From NCBI GenBank assembly GCA_963716235.1, contig CAVQTE010000017.1:26295-90294 (forward strand): 64,000 nucleotides of DNA, in the 5' to 3' direction. The stretch's first letter is position 1; every line of letters starts with the position of its first letter. Made by a program: the position numbers and the translations under genes. Source of the stretch: Ilumatobacteraceae bacterium. Lineage in GTDB: Bacteria > Actinomycetota > Acidimicrobiia > Acidimicrobiales > Ilumatobacteraceae. Below the pieces are notes generated by a model. It worked only from the letters and a program-made list of their open reading frames with translations. It was not told where the DNA came from and did no database searches. This document shows, in pieces, positions 44,361 through 63,274 of the stretch.

Positions 44361-45125
44361 ATGCCCTACGCTCGCCGTATGCCTGGGACCTCGTTCGATC
44401 GGGTCGCATCGATCTATGACGCCACACGCGGCGGCGAACGGCGCGGCGACACCTTCGCCGACGCCCTGTCGGCCTGGATCGTCGGCCCGACCGTCGTCGA
44501 GCTCGGGATCGGAACCGGGGTCATCGCCAACGGCCTGCGACGCCATGACATCCATCCGCTCGGATTCGATCTCAGCGATGCGATGCTGCGATCGGCGGTT
44601 GCCCGACTGGGTGACCGCGTCGCCATCGCGGACGTCGATCGGCTCCCGCTCGCCGACGACTGCACCGACACCGCCTACTTCGTCTGGGTGCTGCAGCTGG
44701 TCGACGACCCAATCGCCACGTTGAACGAGGCCGCGCGGATCGTGCGGCCCGGCGGGCGCGTGATCGCGATCCTGTCGAACTCCGAATTCGACCCGGCCGA
44801 CGAGATCGCGACGATCATCGACGGGCTGGCTCCCCTGCGCACCGCGCGCCTCGATAGGAACCGGATCGTCGAGGCGGACGTCGACGGGCTGTCGCTCGCG
44901 CACCAGGGGTACACGCCGTGGGACAGGTTCACGAGCACCGTCGCCGACGAGATCGACCACATCGAGAACCGCGTCTACTCGTCGCTGTTCGACGTCGACG
45001 ACGCCACGTGGGCTCGCGTGGTTGCTCCCGTCCTCGAGCGGCTACGGGCACTTCCCGACCCCGAACGACCACGCGAGCGCCGCAACCGCCACCCCCTCCT
45101 CGTCTGGCAGGTCCGACACCACTAG
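44361..45125 (+). CDS. Class I SAM-dependent methyltransferase
   Basis: Motif I VVELGIGTGV, then a post-II/III block and GGRVIAIL. The start is 44361 or 44379. Confidence 0.75.
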   Translation: MPYARRMPGTSFDRVASIYDATRGGERRGDTFADALSAWIVGPTVVELGIGTGVIANGLRRHDIHPLGFDLSDAMLRSAVARLGDRVAIADVDRLPLADDCTDTAYFVWVLQLVDDPIATLNEAARIVRPGGRVIAILSNSEFDPADEIATIIDGLAPLRTARLDRNRIVEADVDGLSLAHQGYTPWDRFTSTVADEIDHIENRVYSSLFDVDDATWARVVAPVLERLRALPDPERPRERRNRHPLLVWQVRHH

Positions 45126-45136
45126 CGTTCGCTCGA

Positions 45137-46705
45137 ATGAGTGGGCTGCTGCGGAGCAACGTCGTCGTTGCCAGCGGCACCGCGCTGTCGAGGATCACCG
45201 GACTGTTCCGGTTGATCATCCTCGGCTACGTGCTCGGCCAGACAGCCCTCTCCGATGCCTACCTGATCGCCAACGAGACCCCGAACATCGTCTACGAGCT
45301 GCTGCTCGGCGGCCTGCTGTCGGCCACGCTCGTGCCGTTGTTCTCGACCTTCGTCGAGACCGACGACGACGAGGCGACGAACGTGGTGCTCACGGTGTCG
45401 GTGACGCTGATGGCGGCGTTGACCGTCGTCGCCGTGATCGCCGCGCCCCTGATCTTCGGGTTGTACTCGGTCAACGTGGCCGACGGCGTCGACGCCGACC
45501 TCTACCGATCGGTCGGAACCACTCTCGCGCGCATCTTCCTGATCCAGATCCTCTTCTACGGACTCGTCGGCCTCGCCAATGCATTCCTGAACAGCCGCCG
45601 ACGGTTCTTCGCCGCTGCCTGGGCCCCGATCCTGCCGAACATCATCATCATCGCGTTCCTGCTGTCGTTGCCGAATCCGGGCTCGGCCGACTGGCAGCTG
45701 GAAGACGTGCTCTCGGACGACCGTCTCCGTTGGACGCTCGGGCTCGGCGCAACGGTCGGGATCGCCACGATGGCGGCCGTGCTCATCCCGGCGATGTTCG
45801 CCACGGGGTTCAAGTTCCGCCCGAACTTCGACGTCCGTCACCCGGCAGTGCGCAAGCTCCTGTCGCTGTCGTTCTGGACCATCGGATTCGTCGTGGCCAA
45901 CCAGGTGGCCCTCCTCGTGGTCCGCAACCTCGCCGAACCCGGATCGAGCGGTGCGAGCGCCTACATCAACGCATTCACCTTCTTCGTGCTCCCCCATGGC
46001 CTCTTGGCGGTCTCGATCGCCACCACGTTCCAACCAGAGATGTCGCGATCGGTGGCGCGCCGCGACCGAGCGGGCTTCGTCGACCAGGCCTCACTCGGCC
46101 TCCGGATGACCGCTCTGTTCACGATCCCGGCGGGTGTGGGGATCTTCGTACTGCGTCAACCGATCATCGGAGCGCTCCTCCAGCGAGGCGAATTCAGTGC
46201 CGCCGATGCCGACGCCGCCCAACGGGCACTGGCCGGGCTGGCTCTCGGCCTCGGTGCATTCTCCATCTACATGTTCGTGCTCCGCGGTTTCTACGCCCAC
46301 AAGGACACCAAGACACCGTTCAAGATCAACGTCGTCGAGAACCTCATCAACATCGTGCTCGCCTTCGTCCTCGTGGATCGCTACGGCGTGCTCGGACTCG
46401 GGCTGGCGTTTGCGCTGGCGTACCTGATCTCGTCGGTGTGGGCGATGCAGGTCCTGAGCTACAAGGTGCCGGGATTCTCCGTGCGTTCGATCCTTGCCAG
46501 CATCGGTCCGATGCTGCTCGCCGCGCTCCTGATGGCCGAAGCGGTGTGGCTGGTGACCAATCAGGTCGGCGGGAACGCCGGTCTCGATGCGGTCGTTCGG
46601 CTCGGCGTGGGTGCTGTCGTGGGAGTCGGCGTCTACCTCGGCGTGTTGTACGCACTCGGCGCCCCCGAACTCGACGCCGTCCGCCGACGCCTCCACCGGA
46701 CCTGA
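45137..46705 (+). CDS. murJ: Lipid II flippase MurJ
   Basis: The start is MSGLLRSNVVVASGTALSRITG, followed by LSDAYLIANETPNIVYELLLGG. The protein is polytopic. Confidence 0.9.
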   Translation: MSGLLRSNVVVASGTALSRITGLFRLIILGYVLGQTALSDAYLIANETPNIVYELLLGGLLSATLVPLFSTFVETDDDEATNVVLTVSVTLMAALTVVAVIAAPLIFGLYSVNVADGVDADLYRSVGTTLARIFLIQILFYGLVGLANAFLNSRRRFFAAAWAPILPNIIIIAFLLSLPNPGSADWQLEDVLSDDRLRWTLGLGATVGIATMAAVLIPAMFATGFKFRPNFDVRHPAVRKLLSLSFWTIGFVVANQVALLVVRNLAEPGSSGASAYINAFTFFVLPHGLLAVSIATTFQPEMSRSVARRDRAGFVDQASLGLRMTALFTIPAGVGIFVLRQPIIGALLQRGEFSAADADAAQRALAGLALGLGAFSIYMFVLRGFYAHKDTKTPFKINVVENLINIVLAFVLVDRYGVLGLGLAFALAYLISSVWAMQVLSYKVPGFSVRSILASIGPMLLAALLMAEAVWLVTNQVGGNAGLDAVVRLGVGAVVGVGVYLGVLYALGAPELDAVRRRLHRT

Positions 46706-46743
46706 CAAACCACCCCGTCCCAGCCCGTCCCACCCGCTCCCAC

Positions 46744-46799
46744 CCGGTTTGCGTTGCAGTTCCATTGGCCCGCACCAACCGAAGTGCAACGCAAACCGG
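46744..46799. terminator. Long inverted repeat between convergent murJ and proB
   Basis: Perfect 15-bp arms CCGGTTTGCGTTGCA / TGCAACGCAAACCGG separated by 26 nt. No U-tract. Confidence 0.5.
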
Positions 46800-47888
46800 T
46801 CAGGAGGGGAGGACGACGAGATCGTCGCGATGGACCACCTCGTGGTTGACGCCTGCGGGGAGGTCGCCGGTGCGGTGCCCGAGCACGCTGCGCACCACCT
46901 CGGCATCGACGGCGACCAGTCCACGAGCGAATGCCCGGCCCGACGGACCGGCGATGTCGACCGTGTCGCCCTCGGCGAAGTCACCGTCCGCCGCCACGAT
47001 GCCGGCCGGCAGGAGGCTGTTGGGCCGGTCGGTCAGCGCCCGCTCGGCACCCGCATCGACATGGACCGTTCCCATCACCTCGGCGGCGAACGCGATCCAC
47101 AACTTGCGTGCCGACAACGTGCGATCGTGCGCCTCGAACGTGGTGCCGACCAGTTCGGCCGACACCGCCCCGGCAAGCACGTCGGGGCGCGACGCCCGAG
47201 CGATCACGCTGCGCAGGCCCGACCACGACGCCATCCGCGCTGCCGTCAGCTTCGATGCCATGCCGCCACTCCCGCGCCCACTCCCGCCGGCATCGACACT
47301 GACCGCGAGCAGCGCATCGTCCCGCCGAACCAGCGGGATCAGCGTCGCCGATGGATCGCGACGCGGATCGGCGGTGTACACGCCGTCCATGTCCGTGAGC
47401 AGCACGAGCACATCGGCACCGACGCTGTTCGCCACCAGCGCCGCGAGGCGATCGTTGTCGCCATAGCGCAACTCGTCGTTGGCGATCGCGTCGTTCTCGT
47501 TGACCACCGGCACGCAGCCGAGCTCGAGCAACCGTTCGATCGTGCGGCGGGCGTGCAGGTACTGCGTCCGGTCGACGAAGTCGTGCGGGTCGAGGAGCAC
47601 CTGCGCGCCGACCAAGCCGTGGCGAGCGAACTGCTGGTTGTAGGCCTCCACCAGGCGGCTCTGCCCGGCAGCCGAGATCGCCTGGAGCGTCGTCATGTCG
47701 GTCGGTCGGGCCGGCAGGCCGAGCGCCGCGACACCGGCCGCGACGGCCCCCGACGACACCACGATCACCTCATGGCCATCGACGCGCAACCCGGCGACCT
47801 CGTCGGCGAGCTTTGCCATGGCCACGACATCGATCGCTCCCCCAGTGTCGGTGATCGATGCCGTGCCGATCTTCGCGACGACTCTCAT
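46800..47888 (-). CDS. proB: Glutamate 5-kinase
   Basis: MRVVAKIGTASIT, VSSGAV, and a C-terminal PUA-like domain. It sits downstream of obg as in many bacteria. Confidence 0.9.
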   Translation of the reverse strand: MRVVAKIGTASITDTGGAIDVVAMAKLADEVAGLRVDGHEVIVVSSGAVAAGVAALGLPARPTDMTTLQAISAAGQSRLVEAYNQQFARHGLVGAQVLLDPHDFVDRTQYLHARRTIERLLELGCVPVVNENDAIANDELRYGDNDRLAALVANSVGADVLVLLTDMDGVYTADPRRDPSATLIPLVRRDDALLAVSVDAGGSGRGSGGMASKLTAARMASWSGLRSVIARASRPDVLAGAVSAELVGTTFEAHDRTLSARKLWIAFAAEVMGTVHVDAGAERALTDRPNSLLPAGIVAADGDFAEGDTVDIAGPSGRAFARGLVAVDAEVVRSVLGHRTGDLPAGVNHEVVHRDDLVVLPS

Positions 47889-58453: not shown

Positions 58454-59841
58454 CGGTCGCCACGTTCGGCATCGTCGGAGTCCACATCGTCGTCGGTCTC
58501 GGCGATCCGCAACTGCAGACGCTGGATCGCGAATCCGTCGACCTCGAGGACCTCGATCTCGATCCCGTCGACGACGAACGACTCGCCGACCGCCGGGATG
58601 TGCTCGAGGCGGTCGAGGACGAGACCTGCAACGGTGTCGTACTCGCCGTCGGGCAGGTCGAATCCCGTGATCCGCTCGATCTCGTCGGGACGCGAACTCG
58701 CGGCCACCGACCACACGCCGGACTCGATCTCGACGTGCTCACCGCGAGCGCTCGGGTCGTACTCGTCCTCGATGTCGCCGACCAGTTCCTCGACGATGTC
58801 TTCGAGTGTCACCACTCCGGCGGGCCCGCCGTATTCGTCGATGACGACGGCCATCTCGGTGGCGTGCGCACGAAGTTCGGCGAGCACCACGCTCAGTCCG
58901 GCCGCTTCGGGCACGGCCAGGATCTCGCGCACCAGCGACGTCACGGCCGTGGTCTCGTACTCCGTGCGGGGAACGCCGAGGAGGTCCTTCGCGTGGACGA
59001 CGCCGTGGACCCGATCGTCGTCGTCGACCACCGGGAATCGCGAATGCGACGACGACATCAGGTCGCGCAGATCGGCAGCGGTCGCATCGGCGTCGATGGT
59101 GACGACACGGTTCCACGGCACCATCGCGTCGGATGCTTCGAGTTCACCGAAGTCGATGGCCCGCTCGAGCAACTGTGCCTGCAGCAACGTCAAGTGGCCG
59201 CTCTCGGCAGACGAATCGACGATCAGATCGAGTTCCTCGGTCGACACCGCGCCGTGCAGTTCCTCGACCGGCTCGACTCCGACGAGTCGGAGCAGGCGGT
59301 TCGCGGCGCCGTCGAACAGGCGGATCACCGGCCCGGCAACCCGCATGAAGATCCATGTCGATGGAGCCAACGAGCGGGCGACGGGCTCGGGGCGGGCGAT
59401 GGCGAGGTTCTTCGGCGCCAGTTCGCCGAACACCATCTGCGCCATCGTGACGAAGACGAGGGCCAGCACCAGGGCGATCCCGAGCGACGCCGATTCGGGG
59501 ACGCCGGCCGCTTCGAGTACGGGGGCGAAGACCGAAGCGATGGCCGGCTCGGCGATGAAACCGAGGGCCAACGTCGTCACCGTGATGCCGAGTTGCGCTC
59601 CCGACAACATGAAACCGAGTCGCTTGTGGACGTCGATCGCCCGTTTCGAGCGGCGATCACCCTCGCGCGCCTGCTCGACGAACCGACTCCGGCGCGCCGC
59701 CACGAACGCGAACTCCACGGCGACGAAGTAGCCGTTCGCGGCGATCAAGGCGACGACACCGATCAGCCCGAGAGCAGTCAGCACGGCGTCAACTTCGTTT
59801 TCGGTCGGCGGACATGTGTGGCCAGATGTTATCCACACCAC
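58450..59841 (-). CDS. CNNM/CorC-type hemolysin family protein (paralogue)
   Basis: YFVAVEFAFVAARRSRFVE, a CBS pair and a CorC_HlyC domain. The start is uncertain (GTG 59841 or GTG 59784). Confidence 0.8.
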   Translation of the reverse strand: MVWITSGHTCPPTENEVDAVLTALGLIGVVALIAANGYFVAVEFAFVAARRSRFVEQAREGDRRSKRAIDVHKRLGFMLSGAQLGITVTTLALGFIAEPAIASVFAPVLEAAGVPESASLGIALVLALVFVTMAQMVFGELAPKNLAIARPEPVARSLAPSTWIFMRVAGPVIRLFDGAANRLLRLVGVEPVEELHGAVSTEELDLIVDSSAESGHLTLLQAQLLERAIDFGELEASDAMVPWNRVVTIDADATAADLRDLMSSSHSRFPVVDDDDRVHGVVHAKDLLGVPRTEYETTAVTSLVREILAVPEAAGLSVVLAELRAHATEMAVVIDEYGGPAGVVTLEDIVEELVGDIEDEYDPSARGEHVEIESGVWSVAASSRPDEIERITGFDLPDGEYDTVAGLVLDRLEHIPAVGESFVVDGIEIEVLEVDGFAIQRLQLRIAETDDDVDSDDAERGDR

Positions 59842-59876
59842 TCGGCGACCGTGGTGACCCGGCTAGCCTTCCCGCC

Positions 59877-60350
59877 ATGTCAACCTTCCATGAGTTCGAG
59901 ATGACCTCGATCACGGGTGAGCCGGTCTCCTTCGACCAGTTCAGCGGTCAGATCTGTCTGATCGTCAACGTCGCGAGCGCTTGAGGCCTCACGCCTCAGT
60001 ACGCAGGTCTGCGTGCACTTCATGACGACAACGACGACGTGACCGTCCTCGGCTTTCCGTGCAACCAGTTCGCCGGGCAGGAACCGGGATCCGACGCAGA
60101 GATCCTCGAGTTCGCCACCTCGAAGTACGGGGTGACGTTCCCGATGTTCCACAAGATCGAGGTGAACGGCGACGGCGCCGCTCCGCTGTACCAGTGGCTC
60201 AAGGCGGAACAACCCGGCGAGGGCGACAGCACCGACATCACCTGGAACTTCGAGAAGTTCCTGGTCGACAAGGGAGGCAACGTCGTCGCTCGGTTCGGTC
60301 CGACAACCACACCGGAGCAGGTGGCCGAAGCCCTCGACAGCTACCGTTGA
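59877..60350 (+). CDS. Glutathione peroxidase with in-frame TGA (candidate selenocysteine) at the catalytic position
   Basis: My own translation from ATG 59877 reads ...QICLIVNVASA-TGA(59982-59984)-GLTPQYAGL...VLGFPCNQF...WNFEKFLV. The GPx signature is continuous across the TGA. The ORF track has only 60039-60350. Confidence 0.75.
59985..60030 (+). promoter_or_regulatory. Candidate bacterial SECIS element
   Basis: Hairpin GUACGCA-GGUC-UGCGUGC at 59999-60016, 14 nt after the UGA. The apex GCAGGUCUGC resembles the E. coli fdhF SECIS apex. Confidence 0.55.
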
Positions 60351-60375
60351 TCGGGATGATCGGTCGTCGAGCATC

Positions 60376-61527
60376 ATGACGATCGAGTTCACCCACAACG
60401 AACGGCCGACGGTCGGCATCGAGATGGAACTCCACGTGGTCGACCGCGCCACCGGCGACCTCGTCTCGGCCGCCAACGAACTGCTTGCCGAATTGGGGTC
60501 GACCCATCCGGGAGGTGAACACCCGAAGGCCAAGCACGAACTGTTCCAGAGCACGATCGAGATCATCACCGGCGTCTGCGAAACGCCTGCCGACGCCGGT
60601 GACGACCTTCGCACGACCCTCGCCGAGCTTCGTGTCGCCGCCGATCGGCGAGGCCTCGCGCTGATGAGTTCGGGCACCCATCCGTTCGCGCTCGCCCGCG
60701 ATCAGTTGGTGAGCCCCGATCTGCGCTATCACGAACTGATCGAGTCGATGCAGTGGCCCGCTCGTCGGCTCCTGATCTGCGGCTTGCACGTGCATGTCGG
60801 TGTCAGCGATGGCGCTCGTGCGATCGCGATCATCAACGAACTGCGGCGTCACCTGCCGCTGTTCCTGGCGCTGTCGTCGTCGAGCCCATTCTTCGAGGGC
60901 GAAGATTCGGGACTCGCATCGGCACGGTCGAAAGTGTTCGAATCGCTGCCCACCGCCGGGCTCCCGCCACAGCTCGCCGACTGGACCGACTTCGAGGCCT
61001 TCATGTCGACGCTGCTCGACTCGAGGTGCATCAGCTCCATCCGCGAGGTGTGGTGGGACATCCGCCCGCACCCCGACTTCGGCACGGTGGAGTTCCGCAT
61101 GTGTGACGCAACCCCGACCGTGCGCGAGGCTGTGGCGCTCGCCGGACTCGCCCAGACGCTCGTGGCCTGGTGCAATTCCCGCATCGACGACGGCACGCTG
61201 CCCAGTGCGCCGCGCGAGTGGACCGTGCGCGAGAACCGGTGGCTGGCGGCCCGGTTCGGCATCGATGCCGACCTGATCGTCGAGCACCCCGACACCGGGC
61301 ACCCCGATCGGCGATCGGTACGCGACCTTCTGACCGACCTGGTCGACGAACTCGGCCCCACGGCGCAGGGGCTCGGGACGACGGCCCAGCTCGCTGACCT
61401 CCTCACCTTGCTCGACGTCGGCACGAGCGCAACGCTCCAGCGAAAGGTCGTCGAGGCCGGCGGTACGCTCGTCGACGTGGTCCACCTCCTGGTCGACAGC
61501 CTGGCCGCCGACGAACTCCCCTCATGA
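60376..61527 (+). CDS. ybdK: Carboxylate-amine ligase, YbdK/GCS2 family (gamma-glutamyl-cysteine ligase-like)
   Basis: 383 aa with blocks VGIEMELHVVD, LHVHVGV and WWDIRPHPDFGTVEFRMCD. Confidence 0.9.
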   Translation: MTIEFTHNERPTVGIEMELHVVDRATGDLVSAANELLAELGSTHPGGEHPKAKHELFQSTIEIITGVCETPADAGDDLRTTLAELRVAADRRGLALMSSGTHPFALARDQLVSPDLRYHELIESMQWPARRLLICGLHVHVGVSDGARAIAIINELRRHLPLFLALSSSSPFFEGEDSGLASARSKVFESLPTAGLPPQLADWTDFEAFMSTLLDSRCISSIREVWWDIRPHPDFGTVEFRMCDATPTVREAVALAGLAQTLVAWCNSRIDDGTLPSAPREWTVRENRWLAARFGIDADLIVEHPDTGHPDRRSVRDLLTDLVDELGPTAQGLGTTAQLADLLTLLDVGTSATLQRKVVEAGGTLVDVVHLLVDSLAADELPS

Positions 61528-62717
61528 CCACCGTCTCACCCTCACTGGCTGAGTGGCTGAATGAACACGGCGAAGGCCTCATCGCTCTGCGACGCAACCT
61601 CCACGCCCATCCTGAGCTCAGCGGCGCCGAGCACGCGACCACCGAGCTCGTCGAGGAACGACTCCGCCTGGCCGGGCTCGAACCGCGTCGCCTGGCAGTG
61701 GGAACCGGTCTCGTGTGCGATCTCACTCCGACGAACCGCAATGGCGGGTTCGAGCAGCTGCTCGCACTGCGCGCCGACCTCGACGCACTGGCCATGACCG
61801 ACGACAAGGATGTCTCGTACGCCAGCCGACACCCTGGCGTCGCCCACGCCTGCGGGCACGATGTCCACACCACGATCGTGCTGGGCGCGGCGTTGTACTT
61901 CGCCCATCACCGAGACAATCTGCCCGGACCGGTCCGCTTCGTGTTCCAGCCGGCCGAGGAACGGGTACCCGGCGGTGCTCTCGACGTGATCGGCGATGGT
62001 GGACTCGACGGCGTCGGAGCAATCGTCGGTGTGCACTGTGAACCCAAACTCGATGTCGGAACGATCGGCCTCAAGTCGGGCGCGATCTCATCGGCTGCCG
62101 ACATGGCCGTCATCCGGATCGTCGGGCCGGGTGGACACACCGCGCGTCCTGAACTCACCGTCGACCTCGTGTCGCTCGCCGCACAAATCGTGAACGAGCT
62201 TCCAGGACGCGTCGCCGGCCGACTCGACGATCCCACCCAGGTGAAGCTCGTGTTCGGAGCGATCCACGCGGGCGATGCCGCCAACGTCATCCCCACCCAC
62301 TGTGAACTGAAGGCATCGATCCGAACCCCCTCACTCCCGGTCTGGGAGCGCTTACCCGAACTCGTCGAAACCGAAGTCGTGAAGATCGTCGGCGAGTCCG
62401 GTGCTGTCCTCGAGATCGATTACACCCACGGCGTCCCACCGGTCGTCAACGATGCCGACGTCACCGAGACGCTCCTCCGTGCGGCCGTCGACGTGGTGGG
62501 CGCGCATTCGGTCGCCATGGTCGAGCAGAGTTGGGGGGGCGACGACTTCGCGTGGTTCACTCGTGAGGTTCCGGGTACCTATGTCCGCCTTGGCGTGCGC
62601 GACCCGGTCGGTCCCACGCTCGACCTCCACGCCGGCCACTTCGACGTCGACGAACGGTCGATCGCGCTCGGCGTGCGCTTGCTCGTGGGGGCCGTCCACG
62701 AACACTTCCGCACATGA
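61524..62717 (+). CDS. M20 family amidohydrolase (N-acyl-amino-acid/dipeptide hydrolase type)
   Basis: LHAHPELSGAE, ALRADLDALAM and ACGHDVHT. The start overlaps the ybdK stop (ATGA). Confidence 0.9.
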   Translation: MTTVSPSLAEWLNEHGEGLIALRRNLHAHPELSGAEHATTELVEERLRLAGLEPRRLAVGTGLVCDLTPTNRNGGFEQLLALRADLDALAMTDDKDVSYASRHPGVAHACGHDVHTTIVLGAALYFAHHRDNLPGPVRFVFQPAEERVPGGALDVIGDGGLDGVGAIVGVHCEPKLDVGTIGLKSGAISSAADMAVIRIVGPGGHTARPELTVDLVSLAAQIVNELPGRVAGRLDDPTQVKLVFGAIHAGDAANVIPTHCELKASIRTPSLPVWERLPELVETEVVKIVGESGAVLEIDYTHGVPPVVNDADVTETLLRAAVDVVGAHSVAMVEQSWGGDDFAWFTREVPGTYVRLGVRDPVGPTLDLHAGHFDVDERSIALGVRLLVGAVHEHFRT

Positions 62718-63274
62718 ACACCGACACATGGGTGTTCGGTTACGGGTCGCTGGTGTCGCCGACCTCGTTGGCCTCGACCATCGGACGCCAGGTCGCGCCC
62801 GGTGACATCATTGCCGTCCATCTCCACGGGTACGGACGGCGATGGAATTACGGGTCACTGCACCTGCGAGGGGACTGGCGCCACGACGACATCGACGTCC
62901 AGCAGGGTGTGGTCATCTCGCTCGGGCTGGTCCACGCGGAGGGCGAACACTGCAACGGCGTCGCTGTGCGGGTCACCGAGGAGGAGCTCGCCCGACTGGA
63001 TTGGCGCGAACGTGACTACGAGCGAACCGACGTGACGGACCGGATCGAGACCGACCTCGCGGGCCTGCCGATCGTCACCTACGTCCCGCGGCCGAGTGCC
63101 GTCGAGCGATACGAGGCGGCCCGCGACGATCACCGAGCCGCGATCCGACGTTCGTACTGGGATCTCGTCAGTCAGGCGTTCGCCGACCTCGGCGACCACC
63201 ACTCGACGACCTACGCGTCCACCCCCGCCCCGGACGTGCCGGTGCTGGACATGACGTTGTCACTCCTCGGCTGA
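62714..63274 (+). CDS. Gamma-glutamylcyclotransferase (ChaC/GGCT-like)
   Basis: WVFGYGSL N-terminal motif, YGRRWN and LDWRERDYER. The start overlaps the M20 stop (ATGA). Confidence 0.8.
   Translation: MNTDTWVFGYGSLVSPTSLASTIGRQVAPGDIIAVHLHGYGRRWNYGSLHLRGDWRHDDIDVQQGVVISLGLVHAEGEHCNGVAVRVTEEELARLDWRERDYERTDVTDRIETDLAGLPIVTYVPRPSAVERYEAARDDHRAAIRRSYWDLVSQAFADLGDHHSTTYASTPAPDVPVLDMTLSLLG

Follow-up and report, generated by a model that had tools for sequence, protein, structure and literature searches.

Does the in-frame TGA at the active-site codon of a glutathione peroxidase (GPx) gene from an Ilumatobacteraceae bacterium encode selenocysteine (Sec), or does it break the gene? In the 64-kb stretch of DNA analysed here (the window), a single frame on the plus strand runs from an ATG at 59877 through a TGA at 59982-59984 to a terminator TGA at 60348-60350. 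A sequence-only reading of the window had traced this frame and had pointed out that the ORF track reports only its C-terminal 103 aa (60039-60350). Both points agree with the sequence and with the mechanical ORF list, which at this locus holds only 59814-59984 (56 aa) and the 103-aa piece with its GTG start. Translation of 59877-60350 gives MSTFHEFEMTSITGEPVSFDQFSGQICLIVNVASA, the TGA, then GLTPQYAGLRALH and onwards to a C-terminal DSYR and the terminator. From the sequence comparisons described below, we consider it highly probable that this region is a single gene encoding a 157-residue selenoprotein of the GPx family, with the UGA at 59982-59984 read as Sec.

GPx domain and signature motifs across the TGA

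When Cys was substituted for the internal stop, the 157-aa product matched the Pfam family GSHPx (PF00255) with E = 4.5e-39 and 132.8 bits, compared to a cutoff of 27. The match covers residues 4-109 and positions 1-108 of the 108 profile positions, and it therefore spans the TGA, in line with the earlier claim that conserved GPx sequence continues in one frame on both sides. In a PDB sequence search, solved GPx structures were matched over residues 1-154, the best being yeast Hyr1/Gpx3 (3cmi; E = 4.7e-45), with GPx4 structures at E about 1e-38. Matches of this strength far exceed what chance would give. In 3cmi, the counterpart of the TGA is the Cys of the NVASKCG motif, the peroxidatic residue of yeast Hyr1/Gpx3, so that its assignment to the redox-active residue of the GPx signature holds. 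All three GPx signature motifs, for which the SaGpx preprint quotes the definitions NVA[ST]x[C/U]GxT, FPCNQF and WNFxKF, occur in the window product, here as NVASA-U-GLT, FPCNQF and WNFEKF. The coordinates of the features are compiled in Table 1.

Table 1 Features of the GPx locus and of the genes downstream of it, in window coordinates
Feature	Position	Strand	Basis and remarks
Putative Sec-GPx coding sequence, full length	59877..60350	+	157 codons (Sec = codon 36) plus TGA terminator; Pfam and PDB matches, 25 relatives co-linear from start to stop
Start codon ATG	59877..59879	+	35 codons 5' of the Sec codon; position conserved in most relatives
Predicted UGA selenocysteine codon (residue 36, peroxidatic position)	59982..59984	+	TGA in window and L001-L025; aligns with peroxidatic Cys of Hyr1/Gpx3
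Small variable helix UGAGGC/GCCUCA, including the UGA	59982..59998	+	Predicted in most sequences; not conserved across the clade
18-nt block CAGTACGCAGGTCTGCGT (codons 41-46)	59997..60014	+	Invariance at the nucleotide level
Candidate bacterial SECIS hairpin	59999..60016	+	7-bp stem GUACGCA/UGCGUGC, apical loop GGUC (60006-60009); folding and bSECIS criteria
Internal GTG (Val55)	60039..60041	+	Start used by ORF finders for the 103-aa truncated product
Gln68 codon, catalytic tetrad	60078..60080	+	Gln in all 25 Sec forms and all 52 Cys forms
Ala80 codon	60114..60116	+	Site of Cys in all distant Cys-type GPx examined
Trp123-Asn124 codons, catalytic tetrad (WNFEKF motif)	60243..60248	+	Invariant in all 77 sequences
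GCS2/YbdK-type glutamate-cysteine ligase	60376..61527	+	26 nt after the GPx stop; NCBIfam NF010043, 477 bits, cutoff 409
M20-family amidohydrolase	61524..62717	+	TIGR01891, 289 bits; start overlaps preceding stop by 4 nt
ChaC-like gamma-glutamylcyclotransferase-family gene	62714..63274	+	Pfam ChaC on 93%-identical L001 orthologue; 4-nt overlap with preceding stop

The public annotation of such loci implies a different outcome, namely that translation stops at the UGA and that the 103-aa C-terminal ORF starting at GTG 60039 is a functional protein in its own right. This is exactly the piece that gene callers produce: many of the closest database proteins (73-99% identity) are fragments of 101, 103 or 120 aa, as had been anticipated in the prediction that automated callers would truncate the gene, and the comparison suggests that the window's own 103-aa ORF corresponds to the database entry P0019. 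Against a separate product, the 103-aa piece contains neither the peroxidatic residue nor the first part of the thioredoxin fold, its GTG is an internal Val codon preceded by 35+18 codons that are conserved in frame in all relatives, and the Pfam and PDB alignments are continuous across the TGA. We therefore regard two separate products as extremely improbable compared to one uninterrupted GPx.

The TGA codon and its hairpin among relatives

Relatives were gathered by a scan of one genome per species, in which the nearest GPx relative came from another Ilumatobacteraceae genome (L002, 94% identity) and the others were spread across Acidimicrobiia down to 63%. All 25 Acidimicrobiia relatives fetched (L001-L025; 63-94% identity to the window GPx, frame intact) carry TGA at the codon for residue 36, giving 26/26 together with the window, whereas the peroxidatic codon is TGC or TGT in all 52 non-Acidimicrobiia homologues in which the motif was found (L026-L081), in keeping with the initial statement that this residue is Cys in typical bacterial homologues. 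An alternation of TGA and TGC among orthologues, which had been proposed as a check, was observed as well: TGC is present at the syntenic orthologous loci L086-88 and L090, and the database proteins P0002 and P0011 are TGC forms encoded at syntenic loci (CNNM-CNNM-GPx...CoaE-S1). Two of the TGA carriers are isolates, Salinilacustrithrix flava (L009) and Ilumatobacter nonamiensis YM16-303 (L019), and such cultured strains could allow experimental verification of a prokaryotic Sec-GPx and of its reductant.

The sequence-only reading had offered two explanations, Sec at this codon or a nonsense mutation that hit the catalytic codon very recently, and had favoured a hidden Sec-GPx. A TGC/TGT-to-TGA change, or a base-call error in an ordinary Cys-GPx, would take a single base; moreover, the contig is probably a metagenome assembly, and two relatives show anomalies, a frameshift-like stretch in L015 and a CGA at the Sec codon in L089. 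But 26 independent assemblies, with protein identities down to 63%, share the TGA, and their frame, start codon and catalytic residues are intact. Across 25 sequences, the 32 codons 5' of the TGA contain neither a stop nor an indel, and this region has a pN/pS of 0.58 and a median dN/dS of 0.46. Most relatives share the position of the start ATG (it is a GTG in L010, and the start is apparently one codon later in L019 and L022), and protein similarity stops abruptly 5' of ATG 59877, with in-frame stops shortly upstream in several relatives. Purifying selection thus acts on both sides of the TGA, and relatives that combine the TGA with decaying flanks, the pattern named beforehand as pointing to a pseudogene, were not what we found. 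A dedicated hairpin, described below, is in addition conserved together with the TGA and lost with it. As judged from these alignments, the TGA did not arise by a recent nonsense mutation, and we give a pseudogene or a sequencing error next to no probability. The alternation of TGA and TGC among relatives, the intact flanks and the SECIS-like hairpin favour Sec over a nonsense mutation.

As to the two anomalous relatives, the GPx orthologue at L015:10001-10471 has an out-of-frame stretch of about 40 codons in mid-gene, after which the frame is restored; this has the appearance of two indel errors that offset each other in a long-read MAG, and not of decay. In the metagenomic sequence encoding P0017 (L089:1484-1960), CGA (Arg) replaces the TGA while the SECIS hairpin is kept base-for-base, which reflects either a very recent T-to-C change that would inactivate the enzyme or an error of assembly or consensus.

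Immediately 3' of the predicted Sec codon, the RNA can form the candidate SECIS hairpin 59999-60016. Its loop begins 22 nt after the UGA, leaving a spacing of 21 nt, and the hairpin folded alone has a free energy of -8.5 kcal/mol. The bSECIS model (PMC13188914, Fig. 2A) asks for a loop of 3-9 nt, an upper stem of 4-16 bp, a UGA-to-loop distance of 16-37 nt, G at loop positions 1 and 2 and an MFE <= -7.5 kcal/mol; with 4 nt, 7 bp, 21 nt, GG and -8.5 kcal/mol, the hairpin lies within every one of these bounds. A scan of 59800-60400 against Rfam with E up to 10 yielded no match to a SECIS family; according to a 2026 preprint, Rfam covers bacterial SECIS elements poorly. On the suggested SECIS check, the hairpin fits the bSECIS model at the expected distance from the UGA. 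No other TGA followed by a GGUC-loop hairpin in the search had a coding signature on both sides.

The hairpin is conserved at the nucleotide level. A consensus fold of the 26 sequences (RNAalifold) retains one helix, G59999-C60016. This helix varies in two respects only: one pair is U-G in 14 sequences and U-A in 12, and L016 and L018 have an A-C mismatch; compensatory double changes were not found in the 26 sequences because the hairpin is invariant. The 18-nt block at 59997-60014 is identical in 24 of the 26, synonymous sites included. Essentially every Sec-form sequence uses CAG, TAC, GCA, GGT, CTG and CGT for codons 41-46: in a codon table of 25 sequences (L015 left out), GCA, GGT and CTG are each present in 25/25 and CGT in 23/25, while 3-4 synonyms are in use at other conserved 4- to 6-fold degenerate GPx codons. 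These codons are frozen on A/T-ending forms in a genome whose reference genes have a GC3 of 0.78-0.86.

At the orthologous loci that switched to TGC, the hairpin is lost. In L086 the A-G-L stretch is encoded by GCG GGG CTG, with Gln (CAG) in place of Arg46, and the corresponding stretch of L090 reads GAA GGG TTG GTC; the two fold at only -1.5 and -0.1 kcal/mol, respectively. Residue 46 is Arg in all 25 Sec forms and Glu or Gln in all 52 distant Cys forms. The CGU codon of Arg46 makes up the 3' half of the stem, and Arg at this position appears to be dictated by the RNA. The clade represents a clean natural experiment, with Sec and Cys at the same locus and the SECIS frozen in the presence of Sec and erased in its absence. 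In a neighbour-joining tree computed without bootstrap, P0010-P0012, which are Cys forms without any resolving Cys, are nested within Sec clusters, and a group with Cys at position 77 is sister to one Sec cluster. This topology suggests that Sec and Cys forms have switched repeatedly within the clade.

A second, small helix (59982-59998) would pair the UGA with the Pro40-Gln41 codons. L018 and L024 lack it, its position is shifted in L009, L010 and L025, and the RNAalifold consensus does not include it; because two sequences do without it, it is not essential, but it might modulate the access of release factor 2. Pro40 is encoded in 21 of 23 Sec forms by the rare codon CCU, which pairs with the A of the UGA, and in the TGC orthologues by CCG, which pairs with the C of the TGC, an apparent compensatory change.

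With the E. coli fdhF SECIS (GGUUGCA-GGUC-UGCACC, a sequence that we verified in fdhF of 5419/5426 E. coli genomes), the window hairpin shares the GGUC loop, the same C-G and A-U closing pairs (gCA-GGUC-UGc) and the position in coding sequence 3' of the UGA. It differs in its stem, a perfect 7 bp in the window, while the fdhF stem presumably carries a bulged U. Relative to the U of the UGA, its loop begins at +25 compared to +22 in fdhF, one codon further, and the lower stem is not conserved.

Bacterial Sec-GPx proteins are a recognised, computationally predicted family, described since 2005 from Treponema denticola and five Sargasso Sea sequences, and in a 2026 review the prokaryotic form is entered as 'GPX-like, UxxT, predicted with high confidence'. 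The earlier statement that few bacteria have a Sec-GPx is correct: Peng et al. 2016 (PMC5029168) counted it in 13 organisms of >5200 analysed. The window gene belongs to this known predicted family. It has in common with the UxxT proteins of Treponema denticola (WP_010957027.1) and the Sargasso Sea the PF00255 domain, a peroxidatic Sec and a coding-region SECIS just 3' of the UGA; unlike them, it comes from Acidimicrobiia (Actinomycetota). Beside these proteins, the window clade stands out by clade-wide Sec, an invariant SECIS and several apparent Sec-to-Cys switches. A literature search found no paper that deals specifically with a Sec-GPx clade in Acidimicrobiia.

Decoding of the UGA codon

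Among 32 long coding-like ORFs in the window (GC 67%), the stop codon is TGA in 29, TAG in two and TAA in one, and the GPx gene itself ends in TGA. As TGA terminates 29/32 long ORFs, the genetic code is not reassigned; TGA is an ordinary terminator in this genome, and recoding must therefore depend on the local context. Selenoprotein genes have to be picked out here against a heavy background of TGA terminators: a relaxed scan of the window for TGA-split coding regions returned 20 candidates, with a redox-type context only in GPx, and at stricter thresholds the scan missed GPx itself.

Decoding of the TGA without selenium was also considered, either through read-through by a near-cognate tRNA (Trp or Cys) or through reassignment as in codes 4 and 25. 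Three database entries (P0001, P0014 and P0016) indeed have Trp at the Sec position, and no Sec machinery was seen in the window. The DNA behind P0001 (L084:458-931 and L085:47-520), though, carries the TGA and an intact hairpin; these contigs were evidently called under a code in which TGA is Trp, so that the W is a choice of the gene caller on a real TGA and a second kind of mis-annotation beside truncation. Trp is moreover unable to act as a peroxidatic residue, translation normally ends at TGA in 29 of the 32 ORFs, the GPx gene included, a nucleotide-conserved hairpin of the SelB type would have no role in simple read-through, and Sec machinery has been published for the genus Ilumatobacter. 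We therefore consider a product without selenium very unlikely, compared to Sec insertion. With the gene and dozens of its relatives mis-annotated, the selenoproteome and the peroxide defences of Acidimicrobiia are under-counted.

Neither tRNA-Sec nor selA, selB or selD was detected in the 64 kb of the window or in the 10-kb flanks around the relatives' genes. ARAGORN reported no tRNA-Sec on L001-L025, and tblastn with E. coli SelA, SelB and SelD against the window and all loci returned only generic GTPase matches in non-Acidimicrobiia loci. At the level of the genus, Table S1 of Peng et al. 2016 (PMC5029168) lists Ilumatobacter coccineus and I. nonamiensis YM16-303 as SelD+, SelA+ and SelB+, and its Table S2 counts 15 known selenoproteins in the former and 10 in the latter, whose genome holds the TGA orthologue L019. 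In Actinomarina (Actinomarinales, another order of Acidimicrobiia), selA, selC, selD and a divergent selB are present in 84/84 complete genomes (2026 preprint). The supplements of Secmarker (PMC5330540) do not mention Ilumatobacter.

In the window itself, ARAGORN called a 91-nt 'tRNA-Asp(atc)' at 46525-46615 on the plus strand, whose length was suggestive of a tRNA-Sec. As it lies inside the long coding ORF 44858-46705 and has no support from the Rfam models for tRNA or tRNA-Sec, it is almost certainly a false positive. Just 3' of the stop of the same ORF, a long near-perfect inverted repeat (46718-46816, both strands) scores against several microRNA-precursor models, with 41.7 bits and E = 2.9e-07 for mir-584, which is below the gathering threshold; the repeat probably represents a strong hairpin, either terminator-like or belonging to a repeat element.

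In the mechanism that we propose, the hairpin would recruit SelB together with Sec-tRNA(Sec) once the ribosome has reached the UGA, and the Sec-tRNA(Sec) delivered by SelB would outcompete release factor 2 at 59982-59984. No hairpin of this kind accompanies the second TGA, at 60348, which would lead to termination.

Active site, resolving cysteine and gene neighbourhood

The catalytic tetrad Sec/Cys, Gln, Trp and Asn, as defined in the SaGpx preprint, is complete in the 25 Sec forms and the 52 Cys forms (Sec/Cys36, Q68, W123, N124). Position 80 separates the two groups: it is Cys in 52/52 distant Cys forms and Ala, Val or Ile in 25/25 Sec forms, none of which has a Cys anywhere in positions 70-99. 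The Cys of 'QFCQLNYG' in yeast Gpx3 (3cmi) aligns with position 80 of the window product, and we take it to be the resolving Cys82 of that enzyme. The resolving Cys, which in 2-Cys GPx lies near position 82 in the helix that follows FPCNQF, has been tied to thioredoxin-dependent recycling (PMC8614756; SaGpx preprint), and animal GPx has been proposed to have lost it after the gain of Sec (PMC8614756). By this comparison, the Acidimicrobiia seem to have taken the animal path a second time and independently, with a gain of Sec and a loss of the resolving Cys.

The window product thus resembles two groups of known enzymes in part. With the 2-Cys thioredoxin-dependent GPx (Gpx3/Hyr1 3cmi, SaGpx, poplar GPx5 and most bacterial homologues) it shares the three motifs, the Gln, Trp and Asn residues and a similar length, but its peroxidatic residue would be Sec instead of Cys, and it has Ala80 and no Cys in 70-99. 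Like the animal monomeric GPx4, a GSH-type enzyme regenerated by two equivalents of a small thiol, to which it is close in length and alignment, it has a predicted active-site Sec and no resolving Cys; unlike in GPx4, where the element is in the 3' UTR, its putative SECIS is a hairpin of the bacterial kind within the coding region. The two Sec enzymes also differ in descent, as the origin of the window Sec-GPx is independent of animal GPx4 because its sequence nests among bacterial Cys forms.

During catalysis, the selenol would reduce the hydroperoxide with the aid of Gln68, Trp123 and Asn124. As every Sec form is devoid of the resolving Cys, the resulting selenenic acid would probably be regenerated by an external thiol, and not via an internal disulfide that is passed on to thioredoxin.

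The genes that follow gpx may hint at the nature of this thiol. The order gpx, glutamate-cysteine ligase, M20 amidohydrolase and ChaC-like gene is kept in a subclade of Ilumatobacteraceae (the window, L001-L006 and L015), in which gpx apparently heads an operon at 59877-63274; distant Sec-GPx carriers have other gene neighbourhoods. The L001 orthologue of the ligase has a Pfam GCS2 match, and the ChaC-like gene of the window (62714-63274) has no match in NCBIfam. This gene arrangement suggests that a gamma-glutamyl thiol is the GPx reductant; in the subclade, the thiol may be gamma-glutamylcysteine or glutathione made with the apparently co-transcribed ligase, the reductant being pure inference. 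Actinomycetota are usually described as mycothiol-reliant, and gamma-glutamyl-thiol metabolism is unexpected among them. As a tentative scenario, which we think possible but rather doubtful, GPx in Acidimicrobiia went from Cys to Sec, lost the resolving Cys and exchanged thioredoxin for a gamma-glutamyl thiol, in Ilumatobacteraceae supplied by the co-transcribed glutamate-cysteine ligase. If true, this would amount to a dedicated selenoperoxidase module of the gamma-Glu-Cys/glutathione type in Actinomycetota.

Two further cysteines differ in their distribution. The closest Cys-form relatives (P0002-P0009, P0013, P0015 and P0025, the latter at L090:8001-8474) have their Cys at position 77 (EICEF) and not at 80; Cys77, located one helical turn before position 80, may serve as an alternative resolving cysteine. 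Cys27 (codon 59955-59957), which opens the strand that leads into the active site, occurs in 18/25 Sec forms compared to 2/52 distant Cys forms and, from its position in the strand, is judged to be too far from Sec36 to act as the resolving residue.
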